From a virus (Duplodnaviria > Heunggongvirae > Uroviricota > Caudoviricetes), in IMG/VR virus record IMGVR_UViG_2617270963_000006: DNA of 19,276 nucleotides; one strand, written 5' to 3'. Made by a program: the position numbers and the translations under genes. Below, in pieces: positions 1-18,907 of this stretch; the stretch's first letter is position 1; each line of letters starts with the position of its first letter. A model generated the notes under the pieces. The model saw only the letters and a program-made list of their open reading frames with translations, had not been told where the DNA came from and made no database searches.

Positions 1-324
1 CTTTTTCCAGAGGCGGTCGAACTCCGCCTTCGCAAAATAAGCGGAAGCCTGGCGAAGGATATCGTTACTGCGGCGCAGTTCACGATTTTCACGTTCCAGC
101 TCTTTCAGACGCTGACGTTCAGCGGTGGTGAGCCCTCCATCACCGCCCCCGGTATCCCGCTCATGCTGGCGAACCCAGACACGCAGAGTCTCCGGCGTAC
201 AGCCAATCTTTGGAGCAATGGAACAAATTGTCGCCCATTGTGAGTCATATTCGCTCTGACTTTCCAGAACCATACGGACTGCCCGTTGACGGACTTCGGG
301 GGAAAAACGAGTATTTTTAGTCAT
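1..324 (-). CDS. IS3-family transposase OrfA (108 codons; stop codon lies just outside the window)
   Basis: Minus-strand translation from ATG at 322-324 gives [108 protein letters not shown], an HTH/leucine-zipper OrfA typical of IS3-family elements. Absent from the ORF track because it has no in-window stop. Confidence 0.8.
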
Positions 325-378
325 CCTGTTTACCTCTTTCTCAGGAAGTTTAGTCTCCAGGATTCCCGGGGCGGTTCA
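1..378 (-). mobile_element. IS3-family insertion sequence, IS629/IS1203-like, copy A (partial; body continues left of window). Terminal inverted repeat ends at 378.
   Basis: Reverse complement of 340-378 reads TGAACCGCCCCGGGAATCCTGGAGACTA, followed by an RBS and the transposase OrfA start. The same 14-nt terminus occurs at 18868 on the plus strand. Confidence 0.8.
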
Positions 379-1812
379 GTTTTCCCTGGCTTTATTGAGT
401 TCCTCCCTCAGTTCCTGGTATTTCGTTTCTACAGATGAGACATTTTCCAGTGATTGCGTGTCCTCATTATGTTTAACTGGAATTTCTTCCACTGATTCAG
501 GCGCTGCCTGTTCATTAGCCATTGTGTCCGATGTTTGTTGCTTTTCTTCATCGCCATGTTTTCCTTCTGCTGTTCCGCGCTGCGGCATCGGTGCTGATGA
601 GCGACCGCAGGCAATTTCCACGATTTCCGGATCCGGGTTAGCGTGATCGGTTTCGGTCAACACTTTGTTGAGATATTCAGTCACGCGTGCCGGGATGGCC
701 TCAATGCCGATTGGTGCTTCTTTCACGGAAGCCACCACAATGGCGCGGGAATAATCCAGCCCACCGGGCATGGCGATAAATTTGTCGCGAAAAACAGAAA
801 AGGGCGGCTTATTCTCTGACACGATTTCTTCAACGCGTTTTGCGTGTGCTGGGTGCAGGTTATAAATATCCACATCCATTGAACGGGCCAGAACGCCGGT
901 GGCTACATCTCGTGCGAGTGATGTCTTATCATGTTTGAATCCTTCACCACGATCGGTAATATTTCCGCCGCCAGCGTTAGCACCGGAAGGCGTACGGGTA
1001 ATGCCTGAAACATAATTTCCGTTCTGCCATTCTTTTGTCAGCAGGCCCTGATCAAGGTAGTCAGTTTTCATCCAGGTGGAAATGAACTTGTCGAATTCAG
1101 CCGGGCTGATGCGATGATTTGCAGAGTGGGGGAATGCTTTCCCTACAGATTCAGCCAGGCGACTAAGGTGATAGTTCGTCAGTTTATCCAGTTCATGATG
1201 CGCGGCGCGCACAGCAGTAAGCAGGCTCTGAAGGTAACTGTCCTCTGTGTCCATCTCCATACGGATCACGTTATTGCGTTGTTCTGGTGTGGCATGATGC
1301 CGGTATTTTCCATCTTCATCTTTGCTGAATAAGAAGAGGTGAAGGAAGCGATGAGTAAGGCTCAGAGTGGCGACGGGAATTTCACACTCAGAACAGTCAT
1401 CGTCGCTGTCCGGGGATTCGTTTTTCTCCACATCATCCGGAATAGTTCCGTCCGGGTCATCGTTGTCATCGCCAGCAGTTGTGGCATCTTCACCGTTGAT
1501 GTTGTCATTGAAGGGTATAGCCATCATGGTGATGCCATCTTCCCCGCCTTTTTCATAGCGGTTGCAGAATTCAGTATCAAACACGCCTTCCGGTGGAAGG
1601 TCATTCACGACGGGGAAATTTACGCGAACGGGTTTTTTGAAATCATCCTCGTCGTAGCCTGCATCGTCCATGGCTGCAATGCAGCGGGAAACTGCGACAG
1701 AAAGTTTTCTGGCATCAGCCCAGAAAAAACCGCCTTTGATGCCAAGGCGTTTTCTGACTTTATCGTTTTTTGCTTCGCAGTGTAGTGCAAAAGTCTGTTT
1801 ATCAGCGCTCAT
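376..1812 (-). CDS. hypothetical phage early protein, 478 aa, with a strongly acidic D/E-rich segment; C-terminus probably truncated by the IS insertion
   Basis: Long ORF in the track with ATG start and GAGG about 11 nt upstream. Its stop codon TGA is the first three bases of the IS terminal repeat (376-378). No family recognised. Confidence 0.55.
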
Positions 1813-1919
1813 TGTATTTAAACCTCTGGCTGGATTAGAATTAGAGGCCCTTTGTCTGATTTCTCCGAATACGGTGACGCAGGGAGAAATCCGGTAGCCT
1901 GCGCTGCCGGATTTTTATT

Positions 1920-2306
1920 TCAGTGGAAGGTTGCCTGGTTTGCTGTTTTGTGAGTTGTTTTTCCCTTTTCGTGCTGGCATTCAGAGCAGTCGCACTCAGA
2001 ATTTTCTCTTGCAAATTCAAGAGCCTGCGCCAGTGTATGGATTTGTTGTGCTCCAATGTTGCTTCTGACGACTTCACATGCAGCATGAATATATGGGCTT
2101 GGTGTTTTGCCATTTAACCCACATGAAACCAAACGACTGTCTTTATATTCGTTATTTCCAACTTCTGTAAGCACTGAAAAAGAAAATACAAAGTCGATTT
2201 TGTATTCTTTGCATATTTTACTGATGCGTTCTGCAATTTCTTTGAGTTCATTTATTGCATCAGGACTGGTTTCGGAAAATATTTCATTTTGCGCAAGTTC
2301 TTTCAT
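1920..2306 (-). CDS. hypothetical protein, 128 aa, C-terminal Cys cluster (CDCSEC), in an AT-rich segment
   Basis: ORF track; ATG start; weak RBS; same strand as the early-left operon. Confidence 0.4.
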   Translation of the reverse strand: MKELAQNEIFSETSPDAINELKEIAERISKICKEYKIDFVFSFSVLTEVGNNEYKDSRLVSCGLNGKTPSPYIHAACEVVRSNIGAQQIHTLAQALEFARENSECDCSECQHEKGKTTHKTANQATFH

Positions 2307-2379
2307 TTTGATTTTTCCGTGATTGATAATTAATGCGGTTTTTATTTCGGCAGATATGGAAGGTGTATTTTATTACTCG

Positions 2380-2601
2380 TCACAACGACTCTGCTTTTAC
2401 GGGTAAGCCATCGCGCCCGATGAAAACTTTAATCATGCAGTCGGTAATGCATGTTTTTGTTGTGAAGTTACGAATATAGAGTTTTCTCTTTTCAATATTG
2501 TTTGCTGAAGCGATATATGTCCGACCTTCATGAAGAACATAATCGCCAGGCGTCACGCACTGACGTGGTATTTCATCAGTTCCGAAGTGATGAGCAATCA
2601 T
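2380..2601 (-). CDS. hypothetical small protein (about 73 aa from the internal ATG; the ORF extends to a GTG at 2619)
   Basis: ORF track 2380-2619. The ATG at 2599-2601 is preceded by GGAGA with a 5-nt spacer. Confidence 0.3.
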
Positions 2602-3058
2602 AATTATCTCCATTTTCACAAATGAACTTTGTTGATGCGGTGCCTGGTGCCTCCAGGTGGCGTTAACCAGTTAACAATTAACGCCGGGTCAGGGGACGAT
2701 GACTTTCCGTGACATCCTGTCGGTTTAACTGTTCCGCGTGCGCTGAGCCGCATTCACCGCATCACAAAATTCACTTTAAAAAGGGCGGACATCAGCAATC
2801 GGCAAACCGATATCCGCCAAGGGTTACACACAGCAATGTTGTTATTCACAACCGGAAGCGCACGGTCGAAGAAATCTAACGACAATCCTTCTATGGGAAA
2901 GAGTCTTCGCCTCGCGCTTTCGTGTAGTACCCTGGCTTTTCAGGGTAATGTCTGTTCAGTAAAGTGAGAGTGCCGGAACTCACCCGTGTCCGGCGCACGA
3001 TCTCCACCTCACCCGTGGAGAACTCCTCAACTACAAACCCCGTAAGGAGAGTGAATTT

Positions 3059-3268
3059 ATGACACAAGAAGAAAAAGTGATGTTTCTGATGCGGCTGGCT
3101 GTCGATACCTACAATACACAATTCAGGGAGAAAGATATACCTCAAAAGGCAGTTCCTGCCGCGGTAGATAAGGGCGGTGCTATTGCCGTATTTTACGATG
3201 CATTTGAATCATTTTTTGATGAAAAACTCGACGCTGTTAGCGACTTCGGAACATCGAGTAATAAATAA
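3059..3268 (+). CDS. hypothetical small protein, 69 aa, opposite in orientation to the surrounding early-left genes
   Basis: ORF track; strong RBS AAGGAGAG 7 nt before the ATG; its 3' end overlaps the 3' end of the convergent minus-strand gene 3237-3596 by 32 nt. Confidence 0.4.
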   Translation: MTQEEKVMFLMRLAVDTYNTQFREKDIPQKAVPAAVDKGGAIAVFYDAFESFFDEKLDAVSDFGTSSNK

Positions 3269-3596
3269 CGTTCATTACGGTTCTTAAACAACAATCAGTG
3301 GGCTTGATGTTGTTCTTTTCAAGCTCACTTGCCATCACTTCCATTATTCTTGCGCTTACACGAATTATTTGGTGGCTGTAAGCGACGCAACTATCGCTGA
3401 TATTGCTGTTTATTTCTATTACTTCATTTTCACTGGCGGCGCTAAATTTGGATATGCCGTTTCCATTGTCCTGTTTCAGTGCTGTTTCCGCTATCCGGAT
3501 GCGTTCCTGCGTTGCGGAATTTGGGCTAAGTCGATAAACCTGTCTGGCATCTTCCAGAAGCAGGGCGATAATGTGCTTCAGTTCTGTTTCATTCAT
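3237..3596 (-). CDS. hypothetical protein, about 119 aa
   Basis: ORF track 3237-3617 (TTG); the internal ATG at 3594-3596 has GGAG with a 6-nt spacer. Confidence 0.45.
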   Translation of the reverse strand: MNETELKHIIALLLEDARQVYRLSPNSATQERIRIAETALKQDNGNGISKFSAASENEVIEINSNISDSCVAYSHQIIRVSARIMEVMASELEKNNIKPTDCCLRTVMNVIYYSMFRSR

Positions 3597-3627
3597 AGTT
3601 AACTCCGGTAGTTGCAATTTATTAATA

Positions 3628-3813
3628 TCAGGCGGTCAGCTTTTTAAGCTTCTGAACTGCTTTATTCATTTCATCCATACAGTCGATGAATTCGTCCAGT
3701 TTAAGCTGCATTTTTCCGGCGGCCTGAAGAATTTCAAGTTTTAAGGGCGCAAGTTTTTTGTTGTAATCGACGCAGGTTATTAACTCGCGGCCAGTAATAT
3801 TTTGGCTTGGCAC
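3628..3813 (-). CDS. hypothetical small protein, 61 aa (GTG start); overlaps 3734-4018 in another frame, so it may be the downstream half of a frameshifted gene
   Basis: ORF track; coiled-coil-like translation; no good RBS. Confidence 0.25.
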   Translation of the reverse strand: MPSQNITGRELITCVDYNKKLAPLKLEILQAAGKMQLKLDEFIDCMDEMNKAVQKLKKLTA

Positions 3814-4023: not shown

Positions 4024-4329
4024 TCAATCGTAATAAGCCGGAATTGATTTTCCGCGTTGTTTCTGGCGGCCTGAGCAAGTCACACCCATTTCACTGCGTG
4101 GTTTGCGGTAGTAAATACGGTTCTGTTTACTCTCGACTTCTTCTGCCTTCTTGCAGCGAAGGCTTCCGAGTGATACTGCTTTGTCTGCTCCGACGCAACC
4201 AGAGATCTTTAGCGCAATCTTCCGTGTCAGTCTTTCACTACTGCGCCGCTCTGCAATAAGTTCTTCCCTGCGAGCTTTATAGCGGCTTTTTGCCGTACCT
4301 TTGGATTCTTTCCAGATTATGGTTACCAT
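4024..4329 (-). CDS. N: N-like transcription antitermination protein (about 101 aa)
   Basis: Arg-rich N-terminus (SRYKARREELIAERRSSER) and a C-terminus (YYRKPRSEMGVTCSGRQKQRGKSIPAYYD) closely resembling the lambda N C-terminus. ATG at 4327-4329 with AGGAGA 5 nt upstream. Sits downstream of a nut-like site and leftward of cI. Confidence 0.7.
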   Translation of the reverse strand: MVTIIWKESKGTAKSRYKARREELIAERRSSERLTRKIALKISGCVGADKAVSLGSLRCKKAEEVESKQNRIYYRKPRSEMGVTCSGRQKQRGKSIPAYYD

Positions 4330-4439
4330 GATGGTCTCCTTTAAGTGGCTTTGGTGTATGACGCGTCGAGGTGTTTTTCTTCTCGATCGCGGCCTTGCAA
4401 CTGAAATTCGCGTCATCCCCAAAACCACTTAGATTTTGG

Positions 4440-9371: not shown

Positions 9372-9386
9372 TTGCCGGAGGCGCTT

Positions 9387-9782
9387 ATGGCGAAACCTTT
9401 TACACACGAACAGCGGGAAGAACTGAAGGCACGAATTATCGGATTGGTACGCAAAAATGAACGCATGACGATATCGCAACTGGAGAGAGCGACGGGAGCA
9501 GGCTGGCATTCAGTCAGACGTTGCCTTGTGGATGTACTGGCTTGTGGCGATTTATACATGTCCGGTAAATACGGTGTTTTTGCATCAGAACAGGTGTATC
9601 GCGTATGGCGTAAGACACCGGAGAAAACAACTGACCAGACATTGATTCGAAAGTTACCAGACGGAGAAATTCGCCGCTACGATAGACGCCTGAACATAAT
9701 TTGTCGTGAGTGCCGCCAGAGCGAAGTTATGCAGCGTGTGCTGGCTTTCTATCAGGGGAATTTTCAGGAGGCGGTACTGTGA
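9387..9782 (+). CDS. hypothetical phage protein (about 131 aa), HTH-like segment
   Basis: ORF track 9372-9782 (TTG); the ATG at 9387 has GGAG with a 6-nt spacer. Confidence 0.5.
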   Translation: MAKPFTHEQREELKARIIGLVRKNERMTISQLERATGAGWHSVRRCLVDVLACGDLYMSGKYGVFASEQVYRVWRKTPEKTTDQTLIRKLPDGEIRRYDRRLNIICRECRQSEVMQRVLAFYQGNFQEAVL

Positions 9783-11433: not shown

Positions 11434-11451
11434 TGATGGGTATTGTGCTCT

Positions 11452-11937
11452 ATGGCTGAGATTGTTGAAGGAGTGCACTACCTTTCGTTTGATGATCTTA
11501 CCGAAATTAATCGCCTTTTAATTGAGCTTCAAACACCAGATGAACCTGTTAGTGTGCTGAGTGTTGATAATTTAAGTTCTTCTCAGTCTCGTCCCAGCAT
11601 GGTTCGATGGTATGAACAGACTAATGACATGTTTGTACTGGCATCAGTATTGATTGAAAGTCTGATTCAGAATCATCCATTTGCTAATGCAAACAAACGA
11701 ACAGCTATGATGGCTGGTTATGTCTTCTTGTTGTTGAATGGCTATGAGTTAACAGCACCAGGCGATGAAATCGTGGAAATGGCAGAGGGACTGGCCTGCA
11801 AAACCTATACTCGAGAAGATCTCGAGAACTGGTTGTGTTATTGGTCTCGTGCGTATGACAGCCGGGAATTATGTAAAACAGGCGCAACTATTGTTTTGTA
11901 TGAAACTATCAAGCTTAAAATAGAACAGCAAAACTAA
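11452..11937 (+). CDS. doc: Doc (death-on-curing) / Fic-fold toxin, about 161 aa
   Basis: Catalytic motif HPFANANKR fits the Doc signature HxFx(D/N)(A/G)NKR. Start is uncertain: ATG at 11452 or TTG at 11443. Confidence 0.75.
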   Translation: MAEIVEGVHYLSFDDLTEINRLLIELQTPDEPVSVLSVDNLSSSQSRPSMVRWYEQTNDMFVLASVLIESLIQNHPFANANKRTAMMAGYVFLLLNGYELTAPGDEIVEMAEGLACKTYTREDLENWLCYWSRAYDSRELCKTGATIVLYETIKLKIEQQN

Positions 11938-13013: not shown

Positions 13014-13685
13014 ATGACAACTCAAGTTTCTGTTGAAACACTCTCCACGATTACTTACAAGCAGATCCCCGTTATCACTACCGAACTTTTGGCGCACCTT
13101 TACGGCACAGAAGCTATTCGTATTCGCCAGAATCACCACGAAAACAAAGGTCGTTTCATTGAGGAAAAACACTTCTTCAAACTTGAAGGTGAAACTTTAC
13201 GTGAGTTCAAGCACAGAGTAGCTTTTAACTACTCTGTGAAAATTGCCCGTAACGTTCGCTCCCTCATCCTATGGACAGAACGCGGCGCAGCCCGTCACGC
13301 AAAAATGCTCGAAACTGATCAGGCGTGGGAGGTATTCGAAAAACTGGAAGACTGCTATTTCAGCCAGGGAAAAACAGCACCAACCGAACAGCAGCCGCAG
13401 ATTCAGCCACAATTCACAGCCGAAGAAATCATCCTCCTTTGCTACATGCAGCTCTGGATGGAAAAAGCCCAGGACCTCAGCAAACACCTGTATCCCATTA
13501 TGAAAGAGCTGAACTCCTCATACACGAACAAGCTGTATGACATTGCGTTTGAGACCATCTACATGGTGACGAAGAACAGAGACGCGCTACTAAGGGAGGT
13601 AACACGTCTCGACATGTCAAGTTCCATTATCCAGCGGGCCATGCCAATGCTGAAAAGCCTGCGGGCAAGACAATTTGAATTCTGA
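13014..13685 (+). CDS. phage antirepressor-like regulator (ORF6N/Rha-type N-terminal domain), 223 aa
   Basis: N-terminal segment (ITYKQIPVITTELLAHLYGTEAIRIRQNHHENKGRFIEEKHFFKLEG) resembles ORF6N/Rha antirepressor domains; GAGGG RBS; terminator follows. Confidence 0.6.
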   Translation: MTTQVSVETLSTITYKQIPVITTELLAHLYGTEAIRIRQNHHENKGRFIEEKHFFKLEGETLREFKHRVAFNYSVKIARNVRSLILWTERGAARHAKMLETDQAWEVFEKLEDCYFSQGKTAPTEQQPQIQPQFTAEEIILLCYMQLWMEKAQDLSKHLYPIMKELNSSYTNKLYDIAFETIYMVTKNRDALLREVTRLDMSSSIIQRAMPMLKSLRARQFEF

Positions 13686-15011: not shown

Positions 15012-15205
15012 TGAATGCTAAAATTCAAACGATACCTGAATTACTGATCTGCACCAGGGGAAATCAGACAGAAGTCGCCAGAATACCGAACTGCAATCGT
15101 GCTACAGTCAGAAAATACATTGATGATAAAGATGCGAAAAAGCACGCCGTCGTCAATGGCGTCCTTATGGTTCATCGCGGATGGGGTAAAGATACTGATG
15201 CGTGA
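15011..15205 (+). CDS. small putative DNA-binding (HTH-like) protein, 64 aa
   Basis: ATG at 15011 with GGAG 8 nt upstream; HTH-like segment [20 protein letters not shown]; its 3' end overlaps the Q start by 8 nt. Confidence 0.45.
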
Positions 15206-15578
15206 TATCCGGCAGGTTCTTGAGCGCTGGGGGGCATGGGCGGTAAATAACTATGAGGATGTTACATGGTCGCCCATTGCTGCCGGATTTAAGGGACTGA
15301 TCCCCGAAAAAGTAAAATCACGTCCACAGTGCTGTGACGATGATGCGATGGTGATATGCGGGTGCATAGCCCGCCTTTACCGGAACAATCGCGATCTGCA
15401 TGACTTGCTGGTTGATTACTACGTGTTGGGGGAGACGTTCATGGCGCTGGCACGTAAGCATGGATGCTCTGATGGAACTATCGGTAAAAAATTACAGAAA
15501 GCGGAGGGCGTGGTTGAAGGGATGTTAATGTTACTTGGTGTCAGACTGGAAATGGACCGATATGCGCAACGCCTCTGA
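15198..15578 (+). CDS. Q: late-gene antiterminator Q (QuuD/phage-82-type), 126 aa
   Basis: [25 protein letters not shown] ... [14 protein letters not shown] motif resembles Q antiterminators of DLP12/phage-82 type; position after rusA. Confidence 0.75.
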
Positions 15579-15709: not shown

Positions 15710-16369
15710 ATGGACATTGAAGATTTTCTGGAGGCGGAAGACAATGATCTGTCTCTGTGGAATGATGATATTTTAAGCATTGACTGGTTCGTTATCCTCA
15801 AAGAGCTTTTGAAATACCAGAACAGGTTAAAGTTAAACTATTCAGAATTACTTCTGCTGGCTAATTTTGTTTCATTTCACCAGGACGTAGATTCGCAAAC
15901 ATTACCATCAATATCTCTTTTTGCCACCAGAATGCGTGCATCTCGTGCCATTATAGAAGAAGGCTTTCAACGCCTGGAGGAGAAAGGGATGTTGCAGAAG
16001 ATAAGTTATGCTCAAATCGGTCATGATTATGATTTGCGGAACGTTTATGACATCAAGCCATTAATTCGTAAGTTAATTGAGGTGCTGAAAACCGAGTATG
16101 ATAAAAAGCACACTTGCCCCCTCTGCGGCAAAATAGCTGTCTCTGATGAGGAAATTGAGAAAAAATTCGGATTCAGAATTTGCGGGAATAAGAAAAGGCC
16201 GCAAAGCTGGTGCCGTTCATGCAGAAGCACGAAACAACGCAGACTGAATTCATCGCTAATTGGCAAAAAAAGCCCCGAAAATCTCCGCCCGAGGTGGTGT
16301 GAAGCGTCGCGGAACCCCGGATTCCACTCACGATTGAACGAGGTGCTAAAAAGTATTTTACGTACGTAA
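15710..16369 (+). CDS. hypothetical protein, 219 aa: N-terminal winged-helix-like DNA-binding region, central CxxC...CxxC zinc ribbon, basic C-terminus; AT-rich insert gene
   Basis: ORF track; AGGGGG RBS; visibly AT-rich versus flanking phage genes (by eye, not computed); intrinsic terminator 50 nt downstream. Confidence 0.6.
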   Translation: MDIEDFLEAEDNDLSLWNDDILSIDWFVILKELLKYQNRLKLNYSELLLLANFVSFHQDVDSQTLPSISLFATRMRASRAIIEEGFQRLEEKGMLQKISYAQIGHDYDLRNVYDIKPLIRKLIEVLKTEYDKKHTCPLCGKIAVSDEEIEKKFGFRICGNKKRPQSWCRSCRSTKQRRLNSSLIGKKSPENLRPRWCEASRNPGFHSRLNEVLKSILRT

Positions 16370-17134: not shown

Positions 17135-18907
17135 ATGGCATTTAAACACTATGATGTTGTCAGGGCGGCGTCGCCGTCAGACCTTGCGAAACGAATAACT
17201 CAAAAACTGAAGGAAGGGGGGCAGCCTTATGGTAGTGCGCTGATTTCGACAGCTGGTTATGGTGCGGAGTTCATCCAGCCAGTTGTGAGTGAGGGGAGCA
17301 TCTCATCACCAGAGGAGCCAGGCAACCGTCCGACGACCTCAGCGCCTTCTGTTGCGCCAGAATATTACTATGTGATCGCGCTTGCTGGTCAGTCCAATGG
17401 TATGTCATACGGTGAGGGACTGCCATTACCGGATACATTCGACAGCCCTGATCCACGTATTAAACAGTTAGCGCGTCGCAGTACGGTGACACCGGGCGGT
17501 GCAGCATGCAAATATAACGACATCATTCCGGCGGACCATTGTCTGCATGATGTGCAGGACATGAGCCGTCTTAACCATCCGAAAGCGGACCTGTCAAAGG
17601 GGCAGTACGGAACCGTGGGGCAGGGGCTGCATATCGCCAAAAAACTGCTGCCGTTTATACCGGCGAATGCGGGCATTCTGCTGGTTCCGTGCTGTCGTGG
17701 GGGTTCAGCGTTCACCACCGGAGCTGATGGCACATACAGTGACGCGAGTGGCGCCTCGGAGAATTCACCCCGCTGGGGTGTGGAAAAGCCGCTGTATAAG
17801 GACCTTATCGGTCGAACAAAAGCGGCACTGGAGAAGAACCCGAAAAATGTGCTGTTTGCCGTGGTGTGGATGCAGGGGGAATTTGATTTTGGCGGTACGC
17901 CGGCAAATCATGCCGCACAGTTTGGTGCGCTGGTTGATAAATTCCGTGCAGACCTGGCGGATATGGCAGGCCAGTGCGTCGGTGGCTCTGCTGGCGGTGT
18001 TCCCTGGATATGCGGGGACACGACGTATTTCTGGAAGCAGAAGAACGAATCCACGTACCAGACGGTGTACGGCAGCTATAAAAATAAAACGGAAAAGAAT
18101 ATCCATTTCGTACCGTTCATGACCGATGAGAACGGGGTGAATGTGCCGACGAACAAACCGGAAGAAGACCCGGACATTCCGGGTATCGGTTATTACGGTT
18201 CGAAATGGCGTGACAGCTCAGCCACCTGGACGTCACAGGACAGGGCGAGCCATTTCAGTTCATGGGCTCGCCGTGGGATTATTTCCGACCGTCTGGCAAC
18301 GGCGATTCTGAGCTGCGCGGGTAAGTCTTCTGCGTTTGTTAATGGTACTGCCGGGGTGGTTGTTCCAGACAGACCGGTTACCACCTCAGAGTCTGTAATT
18401 TTTTACGATGCCAAAAAAGCTACAGACAATCAGCTGAAACCCTATGGCTGGGACGGTGTGTATGGCAGGGGCACACTGGTTGATGACAGCGGCAATAAAG
18501 CTCTGCGAATTGAGAAAAATAACAGCGCGAAATCCTGGTCAATGTACTGTGATATTGCTGCAGACAAGGCAAAACTTTTACTGGAAAAAGGCGGGGAAAT
18601 TGCTGTCCGGTTTAAAATCCCCGAAAACGTCAATCTTGAGACAACCAGAAACAAGTATGCCTTTGGTTTGTACTGGCGAATAGCGGAATGGCCGGGTGAG
18701 GGTGGTGAAGGCCATCTGAGTTCTTTCTTTGTCCAGACAGATAAAGCCAGTATTAATGTTGCATACCATCATACAGTTAATCAACAAAAAGAACTTGGCA
18801 CGTTTGGCGCATTCGACCATGACTGGCATACGCTTGCATTTAAATTTAAGGGCAGTAACAGCATTAATGAACCGCCCCGGGTTTCCTGGAGAGTGTTTTA
18901 TCTGTGA
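17135..18907 (+). CDS. nanS: NanS-p-type prophage esterase (DUF1737 N-terminus plus SGNH/SASA sialate O-acetylesterase domain), C-terminally truncated and fused to IS sequence
   Basis: N-terminus MAFKHYDVVRAASPSDLAKRITQKLKEGGQPYG and the GQSNG motif (IALAGQSNGMSYG) are characteristic of NanS-p encoded downstream of Q/stx in lambdoid prophages. The frame enters the IS at 18868, so the last 12 codons are IS-derived. Confidence 0.75.
   Translation: MAFKHYDVVRAASPSDLAKRITQKLKEGGQPYGSALISTAGYGAEFIQPVVSEGSISSPEEPGNRPTTSAPSVAPEYYYVIALAGQSNGMSYGEGLPLPDTFDSPDPRIKQLARRSTVTPGGAACKYNDIIPADHCLHDVQDMSRLNHPKADLSKGQYGTVGQGLHIAKKLLPFIPANAGILLVPCCRGGSAFTTGADGTYSDASGASENSPRWGVEKPLYKDLIGRTKAALEKNPKNVLFAVVWMQGEFDFGGTPANHAAQFGALVDKFRADLADMAGQCVGGSAGGVPWICGDTTYFWKQKNESTYQTVYGSYKNKTEKNIHFVPFMTDENGVNVPTNKPEEDPDIPGIGYYGSKWRDSSATWTSQDRASHFSSWARRGIISDRLATAILSCAGKSSAFVNGTAGVVVPDRPVTTSESVIFYDAKKATDNQLKPYGWDGVYGRGTLVDDSGNKALRIEKNNSAKSWSMYCDIAADKAKLLLEKGGEIAVRFKIPENVNLETTRNKYAFGLYWRIAEWPGEGGEGHLSSFFVQTDKASINVAYHHTVNQQKELGTFGAFDHDWHTLAFKFKGSNSINEPPRVSWRVFYL

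Follow-up and report, generated by a model that had tools for sequence, protein, structure and literature searches.

Which gene has been cut short by an insertion sequence (IS) at the start of the IMG/VR virus record IMGVR_UViG_2617270963_000006, and what its intact product would do, are the questions raised by a leftward open reading frame (ORF) in this Caudoviricetes DNA. The whole stretch analysed, of 19,276 nucleotides, is referred to here as the window. The ORF (376..1812, minus strand) has an ATG start and 478 codons, and its product is strongly acidic, with an isoelectric point (pI) of 4.86 and a net charge of -33. A preliminary description, made from the letters of the DNA, gave the ORF with exactly these boundaries and read the product as an early protein with no assignable motif, truncated by an IS and a candidate DNA mimic or counter-defence factor. 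The ORF belongs to a lambdoid prophage and represents an allele, truncated by IS629, of a nuclease-less gene for the N-terminal region of RecE (exodeoxyribonuclease VIII). Family matches and identity to a prophage of Escherichia coli ML35 define it as codons 1-478 (379..1812, minus) of a 690-codon gene. Taken as a whole, the best explanation, held with a probability of about 0.8, is that IS629 has truncated this nuclease-less gene, that the intact protein is an accessory of recombination and that the copy in the window is impaired.

Truncation by IS629

The window starts within an IS3 family element, IS629, the left end of which (1..378, minus) extends to a terminal inverted repeat ending at position 378. 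Positions 2-378 are 99-100% identical to many Shiga toxin (Stx) phage and prophage records annotated 'IS3 family IS629 / IS629 transposase OrfA', and a complete orfA, encoding 108 amino acids, occupies the minus strand from 324 to 1. The assignment to IS629 is based on this near-identity together with orfA and the terminal repeat, and covers one end of the element; the other end and the target-site duplication fall outside the window.

Beyond the element, positions 379-2400 are 100% identical to the ML35 prophage and positions 379-3767 are 99.9% identical. The ML35 allele is uninterrupted (ML35 coordinates L002:4362-6434) and encodes a protein of 690 amino acids, WP_032207275.1, annotated 'RecE family exodeoxyribonuclease', of which the window protein is residues 1-478 with 100% identity. 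In a DNA alignment of the two alleles, identity breaks exactly at 378/379. The ML35 frame runs on as ...KAREN-IPPKNPVD... where the window frame meets a TGA stop (376..378, minus), and since this stop consists of the first three bases of the IS629 end, no foreign residues are added to the truncated product. IS629 is inserted between codons 478 and 479, leaving the 5' 69% of the gene, and relative to the native protein of 690 residues the window copy lacks 212 (31%). The truncation by an IS that had been proposed is thus borne out, and its extent, which the preliminary description had suggested measuring against full-length homologues, is set by the ML35 alignment. More than 100 close homologues are 680-700 residues long, which excludes the possibility, also raised there, that the homologues all end at the same residue. 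The missing 3' part of the gene and the Red genes were searched for elsewhere in the window and were not found. The IS629 terminal repeat begins with TGA, so that an insertion this way round can stop a gene at once without adding foreign residues, frame permitting.

The exact 478-residue protein is already present in NCBI as EYE15196.1, from isolates of E. coli 1-110-08_S3, with the annotation 'enterobacterial exodeoxyribonuclease VIII family protein'. The allele occurs on 11 contigs, of which the longest measures 19,407 bp, compared with hundreds for the 690-residue alleles. Its junction with IS629 was found only in one IMG/VR contig and in the E. coli 1-110-08_S3 draft genomes; searches of 5,426 complete E. 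coli genomes, and of one genome per species, gave no match. A near-identical IMG/VR contig likewise begins inside IS629. Insertions of the same element (99-100% identity) are found in E. coli O157 and Stx-type prophages, likewise in the lambdoid prophage early region, although the particular junction described here is absent from the complete E. coli genomes searched. IS629 insertion in this region is a common cause of prophage decay, and among the Sakai prophages most of the Exo VIII-type and Red-type recombination modules are disrupted (PMC2669165).

Family membership and the missing nuclease domain

Three family resources place the retained protein with RecE. Pfam PF06630 (Exonuc_VIII) matches residues 53-197 (48.9 bits, cut-off 25; E 9e-13); PHROG 607 matches residues 1-477 (E 1e-210), at positions 1-431 of its 883 only; and NCBIfam NF007259 (exodeoxyribonuclease VIII) is matched over profile positions 1-457 of 877 (E 5e-170, score 568). 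Membership of the RecE/Exonuc_VIII N-terminal-region family (PF06630, PHROG 607) is thereby supported above the curated threshold. Identity to the Rac RecE of E. coli K-12 is 55% overall and exceeds 90% over residues 250-412. The earlier statement that no motif could be assigned was therefore wrong, and the profile search placed the protein confidently in a characterised family of recombination proteins, which is the outcome that the preliminary description itself had named as contrary to its reading.

The catalytic part of RecE is another matter. In a functional exodeoxyribonuclease VIII the C-terminal part is a 5'-3' exonuclease domain of the PD-(D/E)XK type (Rac RecE residues 564-866), and a Pfam search found no such domain (PF12684) in either the window protein or the intact 690-residue allele, the sole Pfam match of which is PF06630. 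Relatives of 915-1049 residues do carry PF12684. On the NF007259 profile the intact allele extends over positions 1-598 of 877 with a score of 742, and both it and the window protein lie below the equivalog cut-off of 1269. After a common CxxC...CxxC motif the 690-residue allele parts from the nuclease-bearing RecE proteins and ends in a short hydrophobic helical hairpin, which is kept among nuclease-less alleles. Nor does recT lie directly downstream, that place being taken by IS629 in the window and by gam-bet-exo in ML35 and four related phages. Proteins of about 690 residues encoded upstream of gam-bet-exo (ML35 and the relatives P0001-P0119) are named exodeoxyribonuclease VIII without having the nuclease domain, and this name overstates what their sequences support.

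Rac RecE, in its N-terminal region (residues 1 to about 563), is homologous to the window protein over the whole retained length, including the PF06630 region, and shares with it a leftward early operon position downstream of kil; the intact allele also has the IPxKNPVD..LLAASRGEF and CxxC...CxxC motifs of Rac RecE. The two differ at the C-terminus, where Rac RecE continues into its exonuclease domain and is followed by recT, whereas in the intact allele a 45-residue helical hairpin replaces the nuclease and gam-bet-exo come next. In addition, the window copy ends at residue 478 and has a longer acidic linker than Rac RecE. The window ORF is the same gene as that encoding the 690-residue proteins of ML35 (WP_032207275.1) and of PhiR5_2, POCJ13, 75/02 Stx and phiSTEC1589-Stx1c. 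The window DNA is 91-98% identical to the phage copies and has the same neighbours, kil and the phrog_2016 ORF, but the phage and ML35 copies are intact (682-690 amino acids) and adjoin gam, whereas the window copy is broken by IS629 after codon 478. Public databases already annotate the gene, which is a damaged prophage gene of an ordinary kind and does not encode a new anti-defence protein.

Predicted structure, selection and the acidic linker

An AlphaFold2 model of the 478-residue protein, built from an alignment of 71 sequences, had a mean predicted local distance difference test (pLDDT) score of 82 and suggests two folded domains joined and followed by flexible segments. The N-terminal alpha/beta domain (residues 1-102; 1507..1812, minus) has a pLDDT of 84-97 and lies partly within the PF06630 match. 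It is followed by an acidic inter-domain linker, predicted to be disordered (residues 103-139; 1396..1506, minus; pLDDT below 50), and by a large, mainly helical core domain (residues 140-414; 571..1395, minus), which is the most conserved folded part. Conserved features of the core include R255, a glycine-rich SGxxAGGGNxTDR loop (276-288) and a DxDIYN motif, as well as the motifs PGxLDYSRA (349-357) and TExDH (386-390). The remainder (379..570, minus) comprises a second linker predicted to be disordered (415-456, pLDDT below 50) and a helix (about 457-478) that is cut at its C-terminal end by IS629. In a model of the full-length protein, the part lost from the window copy consists of a short, conserved, ordered motif (480-510, pLDDT 66-85), a long disordered segment rich in Q, E and P (513-643) that contains the CxxC...CxxC motif, and a C-terminal helical hairpin (646-688). 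Fold searches against PDB and BFVD gave no match, and neither did sequence and profile searches of PDB chains.

Selection on the gene was estimated from the ratio of non-synonymous to synonymous substitution rates (dN/dS), calculated by the Nei-Gojobori method for the ML35 allele against three nuclease-less alleles of increasing divergence. The ratio was 0.20-0.25 for the whole gene, 0.10-0.14 for the core domain (140-414) and 0.4-0.75 for the disordered linkers. The lowest values of the gene (0.05-0.07) belong to the motif 479-512, which is kept in Rac RecE too and is lost from the window copy. These low ratios indicate that the nuclease-less gene is maintained by purifying selection. With the 479-512 motif, the cysteine motif and the C-terminal hairpin all missing, the window most likely holds an impaired or inactive allele, in a prophage that is decaying.

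The acidic low-complexity stretch that attracted the preliminary description to a DNA-mimic role is real: the string quoted there occupies residues 115-144 (window 1381-1470), carries a net charge of -14 over its 30 residues, and no other segment of that length in the protein is as acidic. Its conservation is poor, with an occupancy in the linker alignment of 0.36-0.66 and a top-residue frequency of 0.10-0.19. Across 64 relatives the equivalent linker is 4-173 residues long (median 25) and has a median net charge of -4 (range -21 to +1). Given the predicted disorder, the low conservation and this range of lengths, the acidic run is a variable, predicted disordered inter-domain linker and not a conserved mimic surface. 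Known DNA mimics, such as T7 Ocr and ArdA, present acidic residues on a rigid folded surface. The window protein is like them in being strongly acidic and the product of an early phage gene, but its acidic run is poorly conserved and modelled as disordered, no similarity to a solved fold was detected, and a folded, conserved surface with acidic residues in a DNA-like array was not found.

Proposed role, alternatives and genomic setting

An exhaustive search of 1.84 billion representative proteins returned only 208 clusters at E 0.001 or better, and the RecE N-terminal family is thus narrow. Among 65 diverse relatives, PF06630 was recognised in 39, the C-terminal PD-(D/E)XK nuclease PF12684 in 16, and the 3'-5' exonuclease PF16473, at the same C-terminal position, in eight; two carry a RecT domain and one an RNase_T domain. 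Some proteins with 85-88% identity to the window protein in the common region also bear the true RecE nuclease domain. Such fusions to PD-(D/E)XK or DEDD-type exonucleases or to RecT indicate that the module has been paired repeatedly with DNA-end-processing enzymes. The order kil, phrog_2016 ORF, RecE-like gene, gam-bet-exo is found in ML35, PhiR5_2, POCJ13, phiSTEC1589-Stx1c and one 66%-identical relative, five phages and prophages that were counted as independent; the upstream half of the order is present in the window. In one nuclease-less relative, recT comes next. A further relative (P0145; 848 amino acids; L011:5001-7547) joins the RecE N-terminal module to a C-terminal Rv2179c-like 3'-5' exonuclease (PF16473) and not to a 5'-3' PD-(D/E)XK domain; it has a linker insert of about 170 residues with a faint YdfE_C flag, and xis-int lie directly 3' with no annealase gene. 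Prompted by that flag, the K-12 protein YdfE, the product of a Qin prophage gene truncated by IS2, was considered as an analogous RecE N-terminal fragment; BLASTP gave no similarity and the candidate was rejected.

In a 2023 review the N-terminal region of RecE is described as 'of unknown function', and full-length RecE is associated with enhanced linear-linear recombination (PMC11611040). As the nuclease domain is absent from both the window gene and the intact allele, we infer the biochemical function from context: the module fusions and the position between kil and gam-bet-exo suggest an accessory role in recombination, and the intact protein most likely assists phage recombination at double-strand ends in a non-catalytic, accessory capacity. 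In intact phages the 690-residue protein is encoded between kil and the lambda Red genes gam-bet-exo in the pL operon and is made up of the predicted folded domains 1-102 and 140-414, the acidic linker, a helix, the motif 479-512, a disordered CxxC...CxxC segment and the hairpin, the last of these taking the place of the RecE nuclease domain. It may act as a non-catalytic accessory or scaffold alongside an exonuclease/annealase pair, in parallel with the N-terminal region of Rac RecE, which boosts linear-linear recombination. In the window, IS629 also cuts the upstream part of the operon off from whatever lies beyond the element, which in relatives is gam-bet-exo-xis-int.

Several observations weigh against this model. 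The accessory mechanism is drawn from homology, gene fusions and synteny, and neither solved structures nor viral predicted ones offer a relative of the fold to which a mechanism could be anchored. Some relatives have no recognisable recombinase nearby, for example in a P2-like cox context, and a relative in a Rac-like prophage, with a 3'-5' exonuclease domain, has xis-int directly 3'. The contig ends inside IS629, leaving the far side of the element out of view. Both folded domains remain in the truncated product, so that its loss of function is only probable.

The alternatives concern the origin of the gene, the meaning of its acidity and the fate of the truncated product. An origin from a true RecE of about 900 residues, partnered with RecT, that lost its catalytic C-terminus to the IS is highly improbable: nuclease-bearing RecE proteins of 915 and 1049 residues share 85-96% identity with the window protein in the common region, and the region downstream of IS629 cannot be seen in the window, but the matching ML35 prophage DNA (100% over 379-2400) holds the nuclease-less form followed by gam-bet-exo, and several residues within 1-478 set the nuclease-bearing forms apart. 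Scarcely better placed is a counter-defence factor whose acidic stretch would serve as a mimic or decoy of DNA, blocking restriction enzymes or other DNA-binding host defences. The overall acidity of the protein and its concentrated run of negative charge are compatible with such a role, as are a linker that is net negative in almost all relatives and an early-left position beside kil and, in relatives, gam, within the host-takeover gene region of lambdoid phages; a fold without known relatives, moreover, excludes no function on structural grounds. The structure prediction proposed in the preliminary description nevertheless returned a disordered linker (pLDDT below 50) that is poorly conserved and ranges from 4 to 173 residues, so the DNA-mimic reading is not supported. 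PADLOC defence-system models gave no match. Literature searches on the RecE N-terminal region and PF06630, or on an anti-defence role, yielded only 'unknown function' and the enhancement of linear-linear recombination, and the retron literature concerns the nuclease activity of RecE, not its N-terminal region. A non-specific decoy role of the acidic linker may still be envisaged.

A product of 478 residues that is still functional, with a phenotypically mild effect of the IS, is doubtful but the most plausible of the alternatives. The model contains the whole of domains 1-102 and 140-414, both predicted with confidence, most of the lost part (513-643) is predicted to be disordered, and the start codon, probable ribosome-binding site and upstream operon are all intact. 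The lost part does, however, include the segment in which dN/dS is lowest, kept even in Rac RecE, together with a hairpin that is kept among nuclease-less alleles and has a dN/dS of 0.09 relative to POCJ13; the allele is also rare, as noted above, and its junction occurs in none of the complete E. coli genomes searched. It is unlikely, although less so than the counter-defence reading above, that the nuclease-less module is an autonomous, selected protein with an activity of its own and not a decayed RecE, in which case the window copy would be a natural C-terminal truncation mutant. Such a module might be a novel DNA-end tethering or recombination-licensing factor for Red and RecET, or a counter-defence or host-takeover protein with a linker decoy.

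The RecE-like gene lies in the same leftward early operon as kil. A probable ribosome-binding site, AGAGG (1823..1827, minus), is located 10 nucleotides 5' of the ATG, as judged by reading the sequence. Upstream of it, and between the RecE-like gene and kil (2380..2619, minus; PHROG match), is an ORF of 128 amino acids (1920..2306, minus) assigned by PHROG match to phrog_2016, of unknown function. This match is end to end (E 1e-76), the C-terminal end of the product is cysteine-rich (CDCSECQHE), and the ORF holds the same position in ML35, PhiR5_2, POCJ13 and phiSTEC1589. Further into the window the same arrangement continues with N (4024-4428), beyond which are cI, cro, cII, replication genes, ninB, rusA and Q. 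The nin/replication region encodes a Ren-like exclusion protein (phrog_142; 9372-9782, plus) and a homologue of the Doc-like toxins (phrog_577; 11443-11937, plus), and an Ant-like anti-repressor is encoded at 13014-13685. The Q antiterminator lies at 15099-15578, and 3' of Q is the site where Stx phages carry stx; here Q is followed by an ORF of 219 amino acids (15710-16369, plus; phrog_34160) and then by one of 590 amino acids (17135-18907, plus; phrog_143, E 2e-303), both of unknown function.

For the prophage represented by the window, a recognisable and already annotated gene has been disrupted by a common IS, which adds to the signs that the prophage is decaying. For the family, it bears on thousands of proteins of lambdoid and Stx phages that are named 'exodeoxyribonuclease VIII' or 'RecE family exodeoxyribonuclease' but have no nuclease domain and correspond to the N-terminal region of RecE only. 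Purifying selection on the nuclease-less gene, together with its adjacency to lambda Red, makes these proteins a convenient natural system for studying the N-terminal region of RecE.
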